Shown here: one piece after another, positions 4,057 through 27,467 of the stretch
How positions within the stretch are numbered: position 1 is the first letter of the stretch
Layout: the number at the start of each line of letters is the position of its first letter
From: a virus
Length of the DNA: 64,000 bases
Strand: one strand, 5' to 3'
Virus record (IMG/VR): IMGVR_UViG_3300025914_000010
Location: 1-64,000 of that record
Translations under genes and position numbers: made by a program
The notes under the pieces: model-generated
Seen by the model: only the letters and a program-made list of their open reading frames with translations
Databases searched by the model: none
Told to the model about the DNA's origin: nothing

Positions 4057-5102
4057 CTCGGTATCCTCCTAAACGCTGCCTGACGGTGGGCTGACATGGC
4101 GCGTTGTATGCGTGGATCGATTGGTTGTTGTTTCGGCTCGTGCTCGACTTCCATCGAAGCAATCAGCGCGTGTAATTCCTGCTGATCCATCCCCAAGTAG
4201 TTGTAGGAAGTGGCGGCATCACTGTGGCCGTAGAACGTCTGGATGTGCTTGATCGTACACCCTTTCACCTTCATCAGCGACGTGCCAGCAAACCGCCGGA
4301 ACGCGTGCGCCGAGAGGGGGCCTTTCTGGTCGATGCCCGCGATCCGGCAGAGCGCGACGAGAATTCCTTTCATCCTCTGTTCACTCATCGGGCGCACGAT
4401 CGGGCGCACGATCGGCGCGCCGCCCTGCGAGAACACCGGGACCGCGAACAGCCGCTCGTGCTCGCACGGCCTGTTCTCGATCCACGCCCGAACATGGCGC
4501 ACGGCGTTCGGGTGCAACGGCAGGGACCGGCTCTTACCGCCCTTGCCTTGCCGAACGGTAATCATCGGAAGCTTGTCGGATAGATCCAGGTCGGTTACGT
4601 GGAGCGCGCACACCTCCGCGCGGCGCAGCCCCGTGTACGCCAGGACCGCGAGTACCGCCGTCGCGAGATGCGCGCGGTAGAGCTGGTTGTCGCCGCGCCC
4701 GTCGATTAGGCGCGGGCACGCGTCGAAGAGCGCCTGCACCTCCTCGCGAGTCGCCCACCGCTTGCGCGGTTTCTCCGTCACCTTCACTTTGATCTCACCG
4801 ATCTCCGCGCACTGCTCCAAGCCGATCGCCTTCCGCTCCTTGTACAGCCACTTCGCAAAACTCTGGAACGCGGCGACCGCCGCCGCCCGTGTCCGCTGAG
4901 CACGCCCGGTCCGCTTGCGCAGGGTATCGTACATCCGCACGTAGTCGGCTGTCAGGTCGCCCGGTTCCGGCACGCGGCCGAGCTTCCCCGTCAACCACTT
5001 CACCAGCCCGCGCAGATGCGACACGTACGCGTGCCCGCTCGCACTGCTCCATCCCATCTTGTTGCACTTGTCCGCCCGGAACGCCTCGATCAGTTCGTCC
5101 AT
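4053..5102 (-). CDS. int: Tyrosine integrase/recombinase
   Basis: Catalytic R (TGLRRAE), K (GKGGKSR), H-x-x-R (HAFRR), H (GHSD) and Y (SYNYL); N-terminal SAM-like domain. Confidence 0.95.
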   Translation of the reverse strand: MDELIEAFRADKCNKMGWSSASGHAYVSHLRGLVKWLTGKLGRVPEPGDLTADYVRMYDTLRKRTGRAQRTRAAAVAAFQSFAKWLYKERKAIGLEQCAEIGEIKVKVTEKPRKRWATREEVQALFDACPRLIDGRGDNQLYRAHLATAVLAVLAYTGLRRAEVCALHVTDLDLSDKLPMITVRQGKGGKSRSLPLHPNAVRHVRAWIENRPCEHERLFAVPVFSQGGAPIVRPIVRPMSEQRMKGILVALCRIAGIDQKGPLSAHAFRRFAGTSLMKVKGCTIKHIQTFYGHSDAATSYNYLGMDQQELHALIASMEVEHEPKQQPIDPRIQRAMSAHRQAAFRRIPR

Positions 5103-23190: not shown

Positions 23191-24771
23191 TCAAGACGCC
23201 TCAACCTCCACCAGCCGCGCATACCCGTCGGTAGCAGTATTTACCACCAGCCGGAACTTGCTGCTCGTAAAGGAGGCAAACGTCACCGTGCGCTTCACGA
23301 GCCGGTTGCCGGTCACGCTTGCAAGCGTCTGCCACTTGCTGCCGTCCCACCCGAGCACATCGAACGCGGTGACCCCGTACAGGCTGAACGTCGTCGCATC
23401 GGTCGGCTCGATCGGCGACGCGAGGTTATCTTGCAGCGTCGTGACGGTGAACTGAGAGAACGCGACAGGCTGTGGGAAGTCGAATTCCACCCACTTCGGA
23501 AACACTCCCTGCTGGCCGTCGTTCCACCCGCCGCCCGGCGCACCTTTGCCCCAGTTCGCCCCCTTGTGATCCCCGTCCACAAGGTTCGAAAGCGGGAACA
23601 TGCCCGACAGGTACGTGCTGGACGCGGACATGGAAGCAGAGGCGAGGGCGTTGCCGGGCAGCGGAGCAGGCCCGACAGTTTGCAGGGCGGGCACAGCCGC
23701 AATCACCTGCGTCTTGAACGCCTCCATCTCAGCCTTGAACGCAAGGAAATCTGCCTGGCTCATATCGTCTCCTATCATCCGACGGAGCGTTCCGTCACCG
23801 ATTCCGGTCGCAAGCGACTGCGAGTATTGCGTATGGGCGCGCTGGACGATCTTTCCGATCGGCGTCTGCTCGTCCCAACCGGACAGCGTTCCGCCGCCCC
23901 ATGCGTTGTACCAGACGAACTGCGAGCCACCGGCGAGCGCCGCCCGCATCAGCGGCCAAACGTCCCACTGCCACGCCCACGAGCAGAACAGCATCAGGGC
24001 GCATGTCTGCACCTTCCCACTCGCGAAGTCGTGCTCGCTCCCGATGTTGTACTCCCCGATCCCGCCGTCGTCTCCGCCGCGGCTAATCCCTCCGTCGAAC
24101 AGTGCCCCTGCGAGGAACGACTTCCCGGCGTTCACCGTGAACCAGTGGTACGCGTCATCGACATTCGTGAAGTCGAGGTTGTCGATCGCGCCGCCGACCA
24201 CATCGGTAAGGTCCGCCGTCAGTTTGTTCGTCAATCCAGCGAACAAGTAGTCGAGGTAGCACACGAGCGCGGCGCGTGGGCTGTAGGAATAGGCTCCGGT
24301 TCGGTAGTCGTGGTTACGATCGAGGTAGGCGTCGATGGCGGCTCCGGGGTCCGGGACAACATTGCTCATATCGTCGAAGTAGACGCGGCTGACCGATCGG
24401 ACGGCGGCTGTCGGCCAGAATCCCCACGCGCCGTTGACGCCCTCGAAGTGATCCGTGGCAGAATTGAAGCCCCAGCCGTCGAGAGTGTCGGTGGCGTAGA
24501 CGCAATCGATCGATCCAGCGCGTTCGATGTGTCCATCCGGGTCCCAGGTGACGGACGGAATAGCGACCTTCCCCCATATCTGAACGTGGTCGGGGGCCAG
24601 CGCGTGAATGCGGGCGGCTACGTCGGTGACGGAGACAGAGGCGTCAAGGGTGATCTGCGTGATAGAATGCCCTTCGTTTCTCGCGTCCTGCGCCCAGCGG
24701 AACAATCGCGTCGAGTTGCGTGCCTGGGTTGCGGTTTCTGTGATGGAGAGAATGTTCAACCCAGTCTCCAC
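23191..24771 (-). CDS. Protein with possible C25 (gingipain)-like N-terminal fold and C-terminal discoidin (F5/8C) domain
   Basis: C-terminal ASST..LVDG...W...WVEFDF...FDVLGWDGSKW...LVEVE; N-terminal GKVAIP, SRVYF, AYLDRNHDYRTG. Confidence 0.65.
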   Translation of the reverse strand: METGLNILSITETATQARNSTRLFRWAQDARNEGHSITQITLDASVSVTDVAARIHALAPDHVQIWGKVAIPSVTWDPDGHIERAGSIDCVYATDTLDGWGFNSATDHFEGVNGAWGFWPTAAVRSVSRVYFDDMSNVVPDPGAAIDAYLDRNHDYRTGAYSYSPRAALVCYLDYLFAGLTNKLTADLTDVVGGAIDNLDFTNVDDAYHWFTVNAGKSFLAGALFDGGISRGGDDGGIGEYNIGSEHDFASGKVQTCALMLFCSWAWQWDVWPLMRAALAGGSQFVWYNAWGGGTLSGWDEQTPIGKIVQRAHTQYSQSLATGIGDGTLRRMIGDDMSQADFLAFKAEMEAFKTQVIAAVPALQTVGPAPLPGNALASASMSASSTYLSGMFPLSNLVDGDHKGANWGKGAPGGGWNDGQQGVFPKWVEFDFPQPVAFSQFTVTTLQDNLASPIEPTDATTFSLYGVTAFDVLGWDGSKWQTLASVTGNRLVKRTVTFASFTSSKFRLVVNTATDGYARLVEVEAS

Positions 24772-25358
24772 CCGCCGCCGTCACCGTTACTTAGATCACC
24801 GTCCGCCGACATGCCCGCGATTGTCGCCGCCGCAAGCTGCTTCAAATTCCAGTCGAGGTATTTGCGCGACCCACTCCAGCCGCCGCTCTGAGCGAGCCAC
24901 GTCCAAGATACGTACCCTGCGCTCTTAAGCCCCGCACAGACCGCCCCAGAGCCGTAGACGCCCACATTGTAGGTGTCCTTGCCAATCTGCCCGTGACGTT
25001 GCAGGCTATCCCTCACGCCCTTGAAGTAATCGACCACCGTCGCCGCCGGAACGTCGCAATCGACCGCGAAGTAGATCGGTGCGCTGAACGGCTGGCCGAT
25101 GTGCTGCGCGAACGCGAACGCGGCGGCTCCGTCGAGGATGCCTTGCTGGTAGGTGAAGAAGGAGGCATGGTCGCCGGCACTCTCCCAGACGGTCACTACC
25201 GCGAGGAGGGCTTTCGAGAGTGCCTGCACTTCTGCGATCGTCATGTTCTTCCATGCGCTGTGGCTGATGTACCTCGCGACAAAACTATAGCCGAGACTCT
25301 TGATCTCGGCTATGTGGGGCGTGCAATTCTGCGTAGTATCAAGACCTTTGTTTGTCAT
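24756..25358 (-). CDS. Endolysin, DUF1906/GH25-like glycoside hydrolase
   Basis: GYSFVARY...KNMTIAEV...VWE...G..DG..A...PIYFAVD.D...YF.G...VGVYGSG.VC...WLAQS.GW. Confidence 0.88.
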   Translation of the reverse strand: MTNKGLDTTQNCTPHIAEIKSLGYSFVARYISHSAWKNMTIAEVQALSKALLAVVTVWESAGDHASFFTYQQGILDGAAAFAFAQHIGQPFSAPIYFAVDCDVPAATVVDYFKGVRDSLQRHGQIGKDTYNVGVYGSGAVCAGLKSAGYVSWTWLAQSGGWSGSRKYLDWNLKQLAAATIAGMSADGDLSNGDGGGWRLG

Positions 25359-25456
25359 CAGTGAGAAATCCCAAGCACCTGCCGCCCCACCAGCCAACAG
25401 AACACGATCATCGCGATGACGGTGAGCAGGGTTACAATCTCTTTCAGGCGGTCCAT
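25358..25456 (-). CDS. 32-aa single-TM peptide coupled to the endolysin
   Basis: MDRLKEIVTLLTVIAMIVFCWLVGRQVLGISH; TGATG overlap. Confidence 0.5.
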   Translation of the reverse strand: MDRLKEIVTLLTVIAMIVFCWLVGRQVLGISH

Positions 25457-25535
25457 AAGGCGGTATCTGTGTGCAGCGTCAGTACAGCGCTCGACACGAA
25501 ATCGAGCGTTATTACGAGAAGTCGGGGGCCAAATA

Positions 25536-25570
25536 ACAGAAAAGCCTCGCTCCGATGAGGGAACGAGGCT
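25536..25570 (-). terminator. Intrinsic terminator closing the ncRNA unit
   Basis: AGCCTCGTTCC-CTCATC-GGAGCGAGGCT-TTTCTGTT on minus strand. Confidence 0.75.
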
Positions 25571-25577
25571 GCTCGGC

Positions 25578-25624
25578 AAGTTACTCGGAAATTACTCGGA
25601 AGTTACTCGGAAGTTACTCGGAAG
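25578..25624. repeat. 4 x 11-bp tandem repeat AAGTTACTCGG
   Basis: Units start at 25578, 25589 (one mismatch), 25600 and 25611. Confidence 0.95.
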
Positions 25625-25627
25625 GTT

Positions 25628-25823
25628 TTTGATCTCTGCGGGCCGGTCGCTTAATCCGGCTCAGACTGCCCGATTTGTCCGCGCCCGGTGGTTGACTAAA
25701 CTCCGGTTCGTCGGGTGCCTGTAAGTATAGGTAGTCACTCCTATACCCTGTCTTCCTGGAGTGAGCGTGTCGATTAAAGGGAGCCAGCCTTCGTTGCCCT
25801 TCCACGCCGCCGCAGAGATCAAA
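25628..25823 (-). ncRNA. Large tRNA-like structured RNA domain
   Basis: Perfect 14-bp closing stem TTTGATCTCTGCGG/CCGCAGAGATCAAA; D-like arm GCGTG..CACGC; T-like arm GCCGG-ATTAAGCGA-CCGGC; internal TCACTCC/GGAGTGA. Confidence 0.65.
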
Positions 25824-25991
25824 CCGGTTTTCACTGCCGAACCATCCCAAGGGCAGGTAAAGGGTTCCTGTTGGCCGCGACTTTCGTCTCGCACCCTCCA
25901 CGTCAGGCATCTTTCAGCGACAGTGAAATCGGTAGAGGCATATAGGGAGCCTAACGCTTCACACGGCATGAAGCCGAGTTTCATGCCTCTA

Positions 25992-26065
25992 TAATGGCGG
26001 CGCGATTCGAACGCGCACTGTGCAGGGTTTAAGCCTGCTGTCTCCTGCCGTTGGACTACGCCATC
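25992..26065 (-). tRNA. tRNA-Leu(UAA), short variable arm, no encoded CCA
   Basis: GATGGCG/CGCCATT acceptor with A73; GTC..GAC D-stem; GCAGG-CTTAAAC-CCTGC; T-arm GCGCG-TTCGAAT-CGCGC. Confidence 0.88.
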
Positions 26066-26213
26066 GAAGCGCAGTCACCTCCGACACGGGTAAGGCGAAA
26101 GAGGTGACTGCTTGTGCGAGGTGGTATGGATGGAACTGTAGGTTAAACGCAAATCGTCCGAATCCGACTCGGAAAATCTAGGTCCTAGACAGCCCACCAC
26201 GACTCACATATCT

Positions 26214-26221
26214 ATTATACC
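26214..26221 (-). promoter_or_regulatory. -10 element driving the tRNA/ncRNA unit
   Basis: GGTATAAT on minus strand; no clear -35. Confidence 0.5.
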
Positions 26222-26533
26222 CCACCAGTCACCTGCTCACCGTCCGCAGTCCGCTTCCCGCCCAACCGCCCAACCGCCCCAGCAACTCCTCCTCGCCCAG
26301 CCGCTCGGCGTCGGCGGCTATCTGGCGGTCCCAGGCGTCCTGATCGGCCTGCAACTCAGCACGCGCTTCGGCGAGTAGATTCGGGTATTCCGGGTCGTCT
26401 TTGTAGCGGCGGCTGACGAGTTTGGCGGCAGGGCAGGTAATGGCTGTTGTGGGTCCGTATCAATCGGCGGCGTCAATAGTGATTATCGATTTCTGTTAAA
26501 TTGACCAGAATGCTTGTCGAGTAGTCTACTAAT

Positions 26534-26628
26534 TTTGATCTCAAATCAGGTATAATTTAGCAGACAAAACAAAAGCCCCCGCGACGGCTGGAACCGTCCG
26601 GGAGCGTGACACCGAAAGGGTAATTTCG
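26534..26628 (+). promoter_or_regulatory. Endonuclease promoter, operator and two-hairpin leader
   Basis: TTTGATCTCAAA, GGTATAAT, bulged-C hairpin, GTGA, start-occluding hairpin; same layout at 48874-48966 and 19809-19925. Confidence 0.7.
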
Positions 26629-27255
26629 ATGTGTAAGAAGTTTACCTCAACCCAGAACCACAGTCGCACGTGCTTGAATTGTGCCCAACCACTCAAACGC
26701 GGCAGTATAAAATATTGCTCAAAAATCTGCCACGATGCTGCTCAAACAATCAATCCCGTTGTGAATTTCTGGAACCATGTAAGCAAATCCAACATGTGTT
26801 GGATTTGGACAGGTTCATTAACAAGACAAAACGGTTATGGCAATTTTGCGTACCGCACGAACGGAAAACGCACGTATTGCAATGCTCATCGGTATTCTTG
26901 GGAGATACATTTCGGGTGCGTGCCTGCTGGAGTGTGCGTTTTACATAGATGCGATAATCCGCAATGTGTAAATCCTGACCACCTGTTTCTTGGCACGCAT
27001 AGAGATAATTCGCAAGACATGGTTTCTAAAGGACGACAAGCGTTTGGTGACAGGCATGGCTCCCACATTCAACCTGAAACTGTTCAGCGTGGGGAAGATA
27101 ACGGCAACTCCAAACTTACGCCTGAAATTGTACTTGAAATTCGTCGCCTGTATTTGATCGAAAAAGTCAAATCACTGGTGATTGCCAACAAATTCAATAT
27201 CTCCCAAGTTACCGTGACAAATATTGCACATCGCCGATCTTGGCAACATGTTTAG
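26629..27255 (+). CDS. HNH homing endonuclease (HNH_3 type with C-terminal HTH)
   Basis: CWIWTG...GYG...AHRYSW...VLHRCDNPQCVNPDHLFLGTHRDNSQDMVSKGR; low GC; antisense to late operon. Confidence 0.92.
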   Translation: MCKKFTSTQNHSRTCLNCAQPLKRGSIKYCSKICHDAAQTINPVVNFWNHVSKSNMCWIWTGSLTRQNGYGNFAYRTNGKRTYCNAHRYSWEIHFGCVPAGVCVLHRCDNPQCVNPDHLFLGTHRDNSQDMVSKGRQAFGDRHGSHIQPETVQRGEDNGNSKLTPEIVLEIRRLYLIEKVKSLVIANKFNISQVTVTNIAHRRSWQHV

Positions 27256-27467
27256 TCTGTATCCGTAACCGGTGGGGGGCTGACAACCTCCGTTTTCGTC
27301 ACACTCTGCACGCTCTGAGGTTGCAGGCTCTCCTGTGGCACGAGCACACCGAGCAATACCAAAAGAAGGTGCTCTATGATCGGCGGTACGGGCTGCTTCG
27401 CTACACCGAGCGCGATTTCCGCAACGACGCAGAGGGCCATGATGATTACGAGCGGGTTGAACTTCAT
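27252..27467 (-). CDS. Holin-like two-TM protein
   Basis: Two hydrophobic segments; lysis region. Confidence 0.55.
   Translation of the reverse strand: MKFNPLVIIMALCVVAEIALGVAKQPVPPIIEHLLLVLLGVLVPQESLQPQSVQSVTKTEVVSPPPVTDTD

Follow-up and report, generated by a model that had tools for sequence, protein, structure and literature searches.

A member of a covarying phage RNA family in an expressed non-coding operon upstream of lysis genes

What fills the gap of about 670 nucleotides (nt) that lies just upstream of the lysis genes of a soil phage? The gap, positions 25536-26221 on the minus strand, falls within the window, the 64-kb stretch of DNA analyzed here, which is the first 64 kb of a 78,660-base-pair (bp) IMG/VR virus record rated complete (IMGVR_UViG_3300025914_000010). 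The original prediction, made from the letters alone, described a self-contained non-coding unit running from a promoter to a terminator with an embedded transfer RNA (tRNA), and our analysis supports that description. The gap is an expressed non-coding operon, and its domain closed by a 14-bp stem (25628-25823) belongs to a widespread phage RNA family, a membership that had gone unseen. What is new is this covarying phage RNA family of at least 107 members, which is absent from Rfam 15.

The family was traced by scanning IMG/VR with an exact 16-mer of the 3' arm (59 contigs) and with a degenerate 20-mer of the hairpin P2 (at least 120 contigs). At least 107 distinct members were parsed by script from the matches listed, and the family-wide counts given below refer to these loci. 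The closing stem, P1, has 5-25 bp and a different sequence in almost every member. It is followed by one unpaired C, then G, and then the 5-bp hairpin P2 with the loop GAAAGCAGA. The middle part spans 44-198 nt without conserved sequence, after which a near-invariant A precedes a 5-bp terminal hairpin (loop AGUAGCGN) that passes into the second strand of P1 (P1') with no spacer. The conserved element is 100-250 nt in size, and about 25 of its unpaired nucleotides are near-invariant.

To examine the pairing, we aligned 60 short members (alignment A3). Standard pairs were formed in 99.6% of the cells vs 74.8% after shuffling, both sides vary in 13 of 17 pairs, and the covariation score was 0.62 vs 0.13 (0 of 500 shuffles), or 0.06-0.09 with the partners slid; these statistics are partly circular because P1 and the terminal hairpin were part of the membership rule. 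The two variable pairs of P2, which were N in the search pattern, paired in 60 of 60 members (UA/CG/GC; GC/UA). The strand is fixed by G-U pairs and by the constant co-orientation with nearby tRNAs. The motif is a covarying structured RNA family that is widespread in unrelated phages, with carriers whose hosts range from Proteobacteria to Acidobacteria and whose genomes are of low or high GC content. The homolog and covariation check proposed with the original prediction accordingly came out well for the 14-bp-stem domain, the only proposed domain conserved elsewhere, and found no homologs for the 5' leader and the spacer of the unit in the fetched relatives.

These data also bear on the idea that the conserved element acts as DNA, be it as a site of recombination or integration or as a repeat bound by proteins, with the tRNA as the sole functional RNA. 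The motif of Pseudomonas phage Persinger lies directly after the integrase gene, the module borders described below are recombination break points, and a set of 11-nt repeats next to the motif has a spacing of about one helical turn, all of which would suit a DNA element. However, compensatory changes preserve the pairing, G-U pairs occur on one strand only, the orientation is always that of nearby tRNAs, and RNA-library contigs from two studies cover the motif. We consider a DNA role very unlikely.

The window copy largely follows the family layout. Its P1 is a perfect inverted repeat, as predicted, with 14 of 14 bp (25810-25823 with 25628-25641). The linker (C25809, G25808) and the P2 stem (25803-25807 with 25765-25769, GCGUG/CACGC) are identical to those of canonical members. 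The P2 loop starts with GA, continues with an inserted 23-nt hairpin (25778-25800) that is common to this copy and the related contig L046, and ends with UUAAUCGA. The variable middle (25661-25764) is followed in the RNA by the terminal hairpin (25656-25660 with 25642-25646, GCCGG/CCGGC), again with no spacer to P1', and its loop, AUUAAGCGA, retains the AGCGA part. We built a covariance model (R1) from alignment A3, leaving out the window copy and its close relatives. R1 matched the window at 25635-25816 (minus strand) over its full length (model positions 1-134) with 40 bits and an E value of 8.5e-6; this is a single copy and the sole match in the whole 78.6-kb genome. The model scored 68 bits for L043, 51 for L046, 67 for Persinger and 70 for Ochrobactrum phage POI1126. 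The UUAAU tail of the window copy's P2 loop (25773-25777) is a perfect complement of AUUAA (25651-25655), with which the terminal loop starts. Canonical members differ at both sites; this may be a compensated loop-loop contact.

How far does the family reach? No Rfam 15 family, ribozymes included, matched any of the 16 member loci tested. The motif is unannotated in its cultured carriers, which are the Pseudomonas phages Persinger, PotUPM1, Orimi01 and Orisa01-03 and the phage POI1126, and its presence there makes it directly testable. In bacteria it is sporadic: it was found in 3 of 401 Alphaproteobacteria genomes searched and, when all species genomes were scanned for exact matches, in three species. 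A canonical member had a few matches in plasmids or phage-plasmids of Alphaproteobacteria and none in complete genomes of E. coli. String and keyword searches of the searchable literature returned no description of the motif, and the family may be an unnamed entry among the 8,495 IMG/VR candidate structured RNAs of a 2023 catalogue (PMC10690425); a 2026 preprint about noncoding space makes no mention of phages. It accounts for many "empty" intergenic gaps in phage genomes.

Several loci showed peculiarities of their own. In L043, a second, diverged motif-like start (GATTTGACCCTGCGGCAACGTGG) with a different hairpin lies at 4080-4130, about 230 nt after the motif. The locus L303, from an Inquilinus limosus genome, has model matches at 1493-1596 and 1639-1743 (36 and 23 bits), which the script parsed as one 251-nt member; it may be a tandem pair or a nested copy. 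The Persinger motif (L300, 2495-2595) lies 12 nt past the integrase gene and faces convergent genes, a frequent place for attP. Small genes located 30-75 nt after the motif resemble, by eye from their translated starts, CsrA in L213 (around 9900) and acyl carrier protein in L196 (around 1370).

The genomic context of the motif was then profiled across the family. tRNAs were found within 1.5 kb in 10 of the 107 members, on the same strand in all 10, and within the tRNA arrays of three phages the spacing between the motif and tRNAs is 1-4 nt. Most members lie between co-oriented open reading frames (ORFs): within 100 nt, the end of a same-strand ORF lies upstream at 43 of 89 loci and the start of one downstream at 33 of 99, vs 11 of 89 in the divergent control. 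Because a terminator-like site occurs within 120 nt in just 12 of 106 members, a stand-alone gene is not the rule. No protein family accompanies the motif, the largest cluster of neighbouring proteins being present at 6 of 107 loci. Such a context suits an RNA module that needs no dedicated phage protein and is transcribed as part of operons or tRNA arrays.

Could the motif act in cis, as a leader of the lysis operon? As a riboswitch or processive antiterminator it would set read-through of the terminator hairpin at 25543-25570, a gate resembling pR'-6S-tR' of phage lambda with RNA replacing Q. Four related phages have the promoter and the motif before the lysis genes, with the terminator seen in three, and the near-invariant unpaired nucleotides (about 25) on a junction scaffold are typical of aptamers. 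In addition, one third of the members have a same-strand ORF start within 100 nt, and no Q-type antiterminator gene was found in the phage (PF06530 and PF03589). The genes downstream of the motif are unrelated across the family, however, and a terminator is nearby in only 12 of 106 members vs 6 of 105 upstream. Some members lie in tRNA arrays or at an integrase 3' end facing convergent genes, with nothing to regulate, and in L041 and L046 an extra gene stands between the unit and the lysis genes. A cis-acting leader seems unlikely to us, though together with a ribozyme it is a main rival of our favoured reading.

The order of elements is that of the lambda late leader, in which pR', 6S RNA and tR' are followed by S, R and Rz: a promoter, a non-coding leader and an intrinsic terminator, then a holin and an endolysin. 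Given this lambda-like order, with the terminator before the lysis genes, expression of the latter would need read-through. The leader described here differs in its length of 670 nt, in containing a tRNA and a conserved structured RNA, and in the lack of a Q-like gene in the genome, as judged from the two families searched (PF06530 and PF03589). tRNAs also lie in the late leader of Shiga toxin (Stx) phages.

Alternatively, the motif may cleave itself as a ribozyme, or serve as a processing signal, so that polycistronic phage transcripts, among them tRNA precursors, are cut at the motif borders. Small ribozymes of phage DNA (hammerhead, twister, and theta or hepatitis delta virus (HDV)-like ribozymes beside phage tRNAs) are likewise small junction RNAs with an invariant core and a sporadic distribution, some of them next to tRNAs. 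The location between co-oriented genes, and between tRNAs with spacers of 1-4 nt, would suit such an activity, as would the compact junction with its highly conserved unpaired bases and the phage-restricted, sporadic occurrence (3 of 401 Alphaproteobacteria genomes), as for hammerhead and twister. Yet no Rfam ribozyme family matches the window or the 16 member loci, a P1 of up to 25 bp is unusual among known small ribozymes, and an RNA contig from the metatranscriptome X4 (described below) passes uninterrupted through both borders of the motif. We judge self-cleavage or a processing signal to be improbable.

What else does the unit contain? Its parts were folded individually against shuffled sequences (200 shuffles for the hairpins flanking the tRNA), and the z scores are reported. 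In the order of transcription, the features are as follows.

26214-26221, minus strand: -10 promoter element GGTATAAT, within TGGTGGGGTATAATAG; octamer enrichment, kept in relatives.
26113-26207, minus strand: 5' leader with nested hairpins; the minimum free energy fold matches the predicted description (z -2.1); lineage-specific and weakly supported.
26071-26111, minus strand: strong hairpin of 11-12 bp, 5 nt before the tRNA; inverted repeat I4 and fold.
25992-26065, minus strand: tRNA with anticodon UAA; ARAGORN, and Rfam RF00005 at 52.9 bits vs a gathering score of 29.
25930-25991, minus strand: hairpin with two competing pairings, directly 3' of the tRNA; z -3.3, 0 of 200 shuffles.
25824-25929, minus strand: spacer domain closed by the imperfect 11-nt repeat I5; arms 25829-25839 and 25918-25928, 91% complementary.
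25628-25823, minus strand: member of the phage RNA family; covariance model match and alignment.
25572-25624, minus strand: tandem repeat with an 11-nt unit (CUUCCGAGUAA in the RNA sense), 4.7 copies; mechanical repeat scans.
25536-25570, minus strand: intrinsic terminator; hairpin 25543-25570 with an 11-bp stem including 7 G-C pairs, then the T run UUUUCUGU.
25358-25456, minus strand: ORF of 32 amino acids (aa), single membrane span, holin-like; from its translation, with a stop that overlaps the endolysin start.
24756-25364, minus strand: endolysin, Rv2525c-like glycoside hydrolase domain; PF08924 at 6e-27, PHROG 13480 endolysin, 185 homologs.

All of the parts named in the original prediction were recovered at their predicted positions. 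The -10 element was confirmed by the enrichment of its octamer, which occurs 6 times in the window vs 0.47 expected (0 of 100 shuffles); on reading the sequence upstream of the element, no -35 element was recognisable. The stem at 26071-26111 is a perfect inverted repeat, with 11-nt arms (26071-26081 and 26101-26111) that are 100% complementary, and folds as a 12-bp hairpin of -25.7 kcal/mol (z -6.4, 0 of 200 shuffles). The two-state hairpin after the tRNA, the 11-nt repeats and the terminator, hairpin and T run included, were likewise found, and the repeats and terminator folded together reached -31.6 kcal/mol (z -4.0). Two domains fared less well: the multi-stem 5' domain folds as claimed, with the modest z given above and no homolog among the fetched relatives, and the domain proposed at about 25823-25933 has its closing arms, but its fold (taken as 25824-25935) is not above chance (z -1.4) and no homolog exists in L041, L043 or L046. 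The unit had been said to encode no credible product, and its two longest overlapping ORFs indeed gave no Pfam or PHROG match. It also lies just upstream of the lysis genes, as stated, with the 32-aa membrane ORF and the PF08924 endolysin directly downstream.

To learn how the unit was put together, we looked for relatives. No close relative was found among GenBank phages, where the match was limited to the tRNA, and none of the IMG/VR relatives reached via the endolysin or the major capsid protein contains the region. Scanning JGI metagenome contigs with an endolysin alignment yielded three informative relatives, with endolysin identities to the window of 84% (L041) and 65-66% (L043 and L046). 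In BLAST comparisons with these, only the 5' and 3' parts of the 14-bp-stem domain recur (91% over 67 nt for the 5' part in L046). No tRNA and no 11-nt repeats are present in L041, L043 or L046. L041 has the identical promoter sequence, TGGTGGGGTATAATAG, at the same place and, about 25 nt on, a diverged motif with the same P1 and an ACCA tail, followed by a terminator, a 184-aa gene, a 34-aa hydrophobic membrane ORF and the endolysin. In L046 the motif stands between a GATATAAT promoter and a terminator. Both L041 and L046 have an additional gene that separates the unit from the lysis genes. In L043, GGGTATAAT lies 35 nt before the motif, and no terminator was seen after it. Based on these layouts, the core that the clade conserves consists of the promoter and the motif; three of the four phages also have a terminator.

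Variants of the window itself tell of its modules. In DNA runs, contigs that equal the window on one side depart from it precisely at 25828, which is 5 nt ahead of P1, and at 25991, the 3' end of the tRNA. By sequence comparison, about 400 nt (the 5' leader, strong hairpin, tRNA, post-tRNA hairpin and spacer) and the 11-nt repeats appear to be insertions in the window lineage. The unit is a mosaic non-coding operon, not one fold.

This speaks to the first of the two alternatives in the original prediction, a single integrated structured RNA of about 670 nt, comparable to GOLLD (RF01998) and ROOL (RF03087), in which all domains fold together. The whole 678 nt does fold better than shuffles (z -3.3), and GOLLD and ROOL lie next to tRNAs; they too are phage-borne structured non-coding RNAs, often beside tRNA genes. 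However, the proposed Rfam check (GOLLD, ROOL, skipping-rope, Y RNA) returned only the tRNA at the gathering score and nothing relevant at E values up to 10 on 25000-26800. Because Rfam finds only the tRNA even at this threshold, GOLLD, ROOL, Y RNA, skipping-rope and known ribozymes were rejected as the identity of the unit. GOLLD and ROOL match neither in sequence nor in structure and measure 580-800 nt vs 100-250 nt for the conserved element, which combines a small invariant core with a freely varying middle inside a mosaic unit. Furthermore, two of the proposed domains are not above chance, natural variants swap modules at 25828 and 25991, and the relatives retain the motif alone. A single large RNA is largely refuted and has hardly any likelihood left.

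Is the unit transcribed? In the rhizosphere metatranscriptome X4, 39% of the sampled words of a 1.2-kb query were present. A 452-nt X4 contig equals 25595-26046 with zero differences and spans part of the tRNA, the post-tRNA hairpin, the spacer, the complete motif and part of the repeats, in agreement with a predicted transcript beyond the tRNA. The coding DNA that flanks the unit within the query is covered by DNA runs but not by X4. X4 also contains a contig of an L046-like copy. A contig of 154 nt from another RNA study (X20) covers 25736-25828 and is joined to a different upstream sequence. Assembly is expected to break at a tRNA and at tandem repeats, which is where the X4 contig stops, and uncovered parts of the stretch in RNA runs do not count as absence. 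These contigs support the co-transcription of the tRNA and the motif, and they do not prove a defined product.

In our favoured reading, which we hold to be probable, polycistronic transcripts are cut to release the motif as a stable RNA, which acts via its two conserved loops on a conserved host component and, in this clade, lies within a terminated lysis leader. The GGTATAAT promoter would drive a single transcript of about 670 nt that holds the tRNA-Leu(UAA) and, 170 nt on, one copy of the modular structured motif RNA, and that stops at the intrinsic terminator ahead of the holin-like ORF and the endolysin. In its ancestral form, the clade's unit probably comprised the promoter, the motif RNA and, where seen, the terminator, with the tRNA and its flanking hairpins, the spacer and the 11-nt repeats as likely later insertions in the window lineage. 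Host tRNA-processing enzymes would cut the precursor at the tRNA, and the motif RNA, its ends locked in the long P1, would persist as a separate stable RNA. Through the near-invariant loops GAAAGCAGA and AGUAGCGN of canonical members it may act on a target conserved across bacterial phyla, while the middle part would be free to vary. The terminator would make lysis-gene expression from this promoter dependent on read-through. A precursor yielding several RNAs was the second alternative of the original prediction and fits best of the two, with the cutting itself presumed.

Two features bear on such a target. About 25 near-invariant unpaired bases are kept across the phages of distant hosts, suggesting a partner universal in bacteria, catalysis or ligand binding; and clean covariation with no fixed protein neighbour suggests that the RNA interacts with a component universal to bacteria. 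Structured RNAs that are widespread and keep a near-invariant core are rarely found, and earlier ones proved to be ribozymes, riboswitches or parts of conserved machines. A similar fate is that of species 1 and 2 of the T4 tRNA cluster (rnaC and rnaD), stable non-tRNA RNAs that are co-transcribed with phage tRNAs and released by tRNA-processing enzymes; the motif is set beside them by description, not by sequence, and no T4-type phages were among the hits.

Several observations weigh against this reading. The two canonical loops, presumed functional, are precisely where the window copy deviates, by the insertion in the P2 loop and by the terminal AUUAAGCGA. Searches for phage antisense sites and neighbouring proteins found no target or partner of the motif RNA. 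Terminator-like sites within 120 nt are few (12 of 106 members, with 6 of 105 upstream). From the circularity of the pairing statistics, through the use of P1 and the terminal hairpin to define membership, only P2 is exempt. The RNA contigs reveal neither ends nor strand, and an RNA library can contain DNA. Finally, a tRNA-like interpretation holds only in part: no one helix closes the middle above shuffles, CCA is not general, and the loops are unlike D and T loops.

That partial likeness consists in three traits: P1 resembles an acceptor stem, two nt link it to a hairpin, and another hairpin, of 5 bp, directly adjoins the 3' strand. Together with the large variable part and the tRNA neighbours, these traits, including the acceptor-like end pairing, are also those of transfer-messenger RNA (tmRNA), of tRNA-like RNAs with an insert and of engineered tRNA scaffolds. 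In contrast to tmRNA, the motif has loops unlike D/T loops, no G3-U70, no general CCA, no tag frame and a middle that is not one closed arm; neither ARAGORN nor Rfam called a tmRNA in the unit. A bolder version of the favoured reading, which we offer tentatively as a possibility, would make the motif a new functional RNA class, a portable module in phages of many phyla. Its rigid scaffold (P1, P2, the terminal hairpin and two docking loops), cut from operons and tRNA arrays, would display a freely evolving payload or disable a universally conserved host factor, and in this clade would also gate the lysis genes.

Other candidates were tried and rejected. For a mimic of the ribosomal GTPase-associated centre, suggested by a shared AAGCAG, the model score on the 23S region was 2.2 bits, and the letters in common stand in different structural contexts. 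Antisense targets within the phage were at chance level (40 11-mers vs about 25 expected by estimate). A CCA tail is not a family feature, since 11 of 107 members have CCA no more than 2 nt from P1 vs 5 of 107 in the control; ACCA after P1 was seen only in L041, L043 and L046, and the window has AACC. A true cloverleaf, with a single helix closing the variable middle, was not above shuffles, and the T-arm-like GGTTCGAATC occurs in the middle part of just 3 of 107 members. For Y RNA or YrlA there was no Rfam match and no TROVE domain in the 78.6-kb phage, and control genomes respond.

The embedded tRNA-Leu of the original prediction was recovered by both ARAGORN and Rfam (52.9 bits). The tRNA is 74 nt long, with A73, a 3-bp D stem and no encoded CCA. 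Its anticodon, UAA, reads the Leu codons UUA and UUG, and of the Leu codons of the phage TTA is used least (26 of 585). Its variable loop has 5 nt and is not the long variable arm of a bacterial class II tRNA-Leu; the Leu identity is putative, assigned by the anticodon only. It is 82-85% identical to tRNAs of Streptomyces and Microcystis phages, and its nearest DNA matches are Streptomyces phage tRNAs annotated as Leu or Gln.

The hairpin at 26071-26111, just before the tRNA, has a 5' arm (UCACCUCUUU) that is similar to the anti-Shine-Dalgarno tail of 16S ribosomal RNA, and its 3' arm is a perfect GGAGGUGA located 10 nt upstream of an AUG-GCG-UAG mini-frame that overlaps the 5' end of the tRNA. 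The sequence TTCCGAGT occurs seven times on the minus strand of the genome and not at all on the plus strand; five of the seven copies are inside the unit, four in the 11-nt repeats (25589-25623) and one in a hairpin of the 5' leader (26167-26174). The near-palindrome TTTGATCTCAAA or its complement has four copies in the genome (19809, 26534, 48874 and 53794), three of which lie upstream of GGTATAAT promoters of endonuclease genes, 3, 3 and 26 nt before the octamer. This near-palindrome is possibly an operator, and both arms of the window copy's 14-bp P1 start with the first 9 letters of it.

The late operon, on the minus strand, has its tail genes at 30-46 kb and the genes for the major head protein and the prohead protease at 58-60 kb. 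The 32-aa membrane ORF matched no Pfam or PHROG family; downstream of it and of the endolysin follows a protein of 526 aa whose end is discoidin-like. Upstream of the unit, on the opposite strand, is an HNH endonuclease gene with its own GGTATAAT promoter (cassette 26480-27260). A perfect 13-nt inverted repeat (25418-25430 and 26232-26244, 801 nt apart) encloses the entire non-coding unit, with one arm within the 32-aa membrane ORF and the other at the end of an upstream open frame, before the -10 element; its rough chance expectation is about 0.01 per this 1-kb stretch, and it is not present in L041. The upstream open frame has 76 codons (26229-26459, minus strand), with no ATG, GTG or TTG before codon 36, and its homolog is a 96-aa ORF of L041 (69% DNA identity). 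The HNH endonuclease cassette occupies the expected start position of this frame, which may be a truncated gene or may use an unusual start codon.

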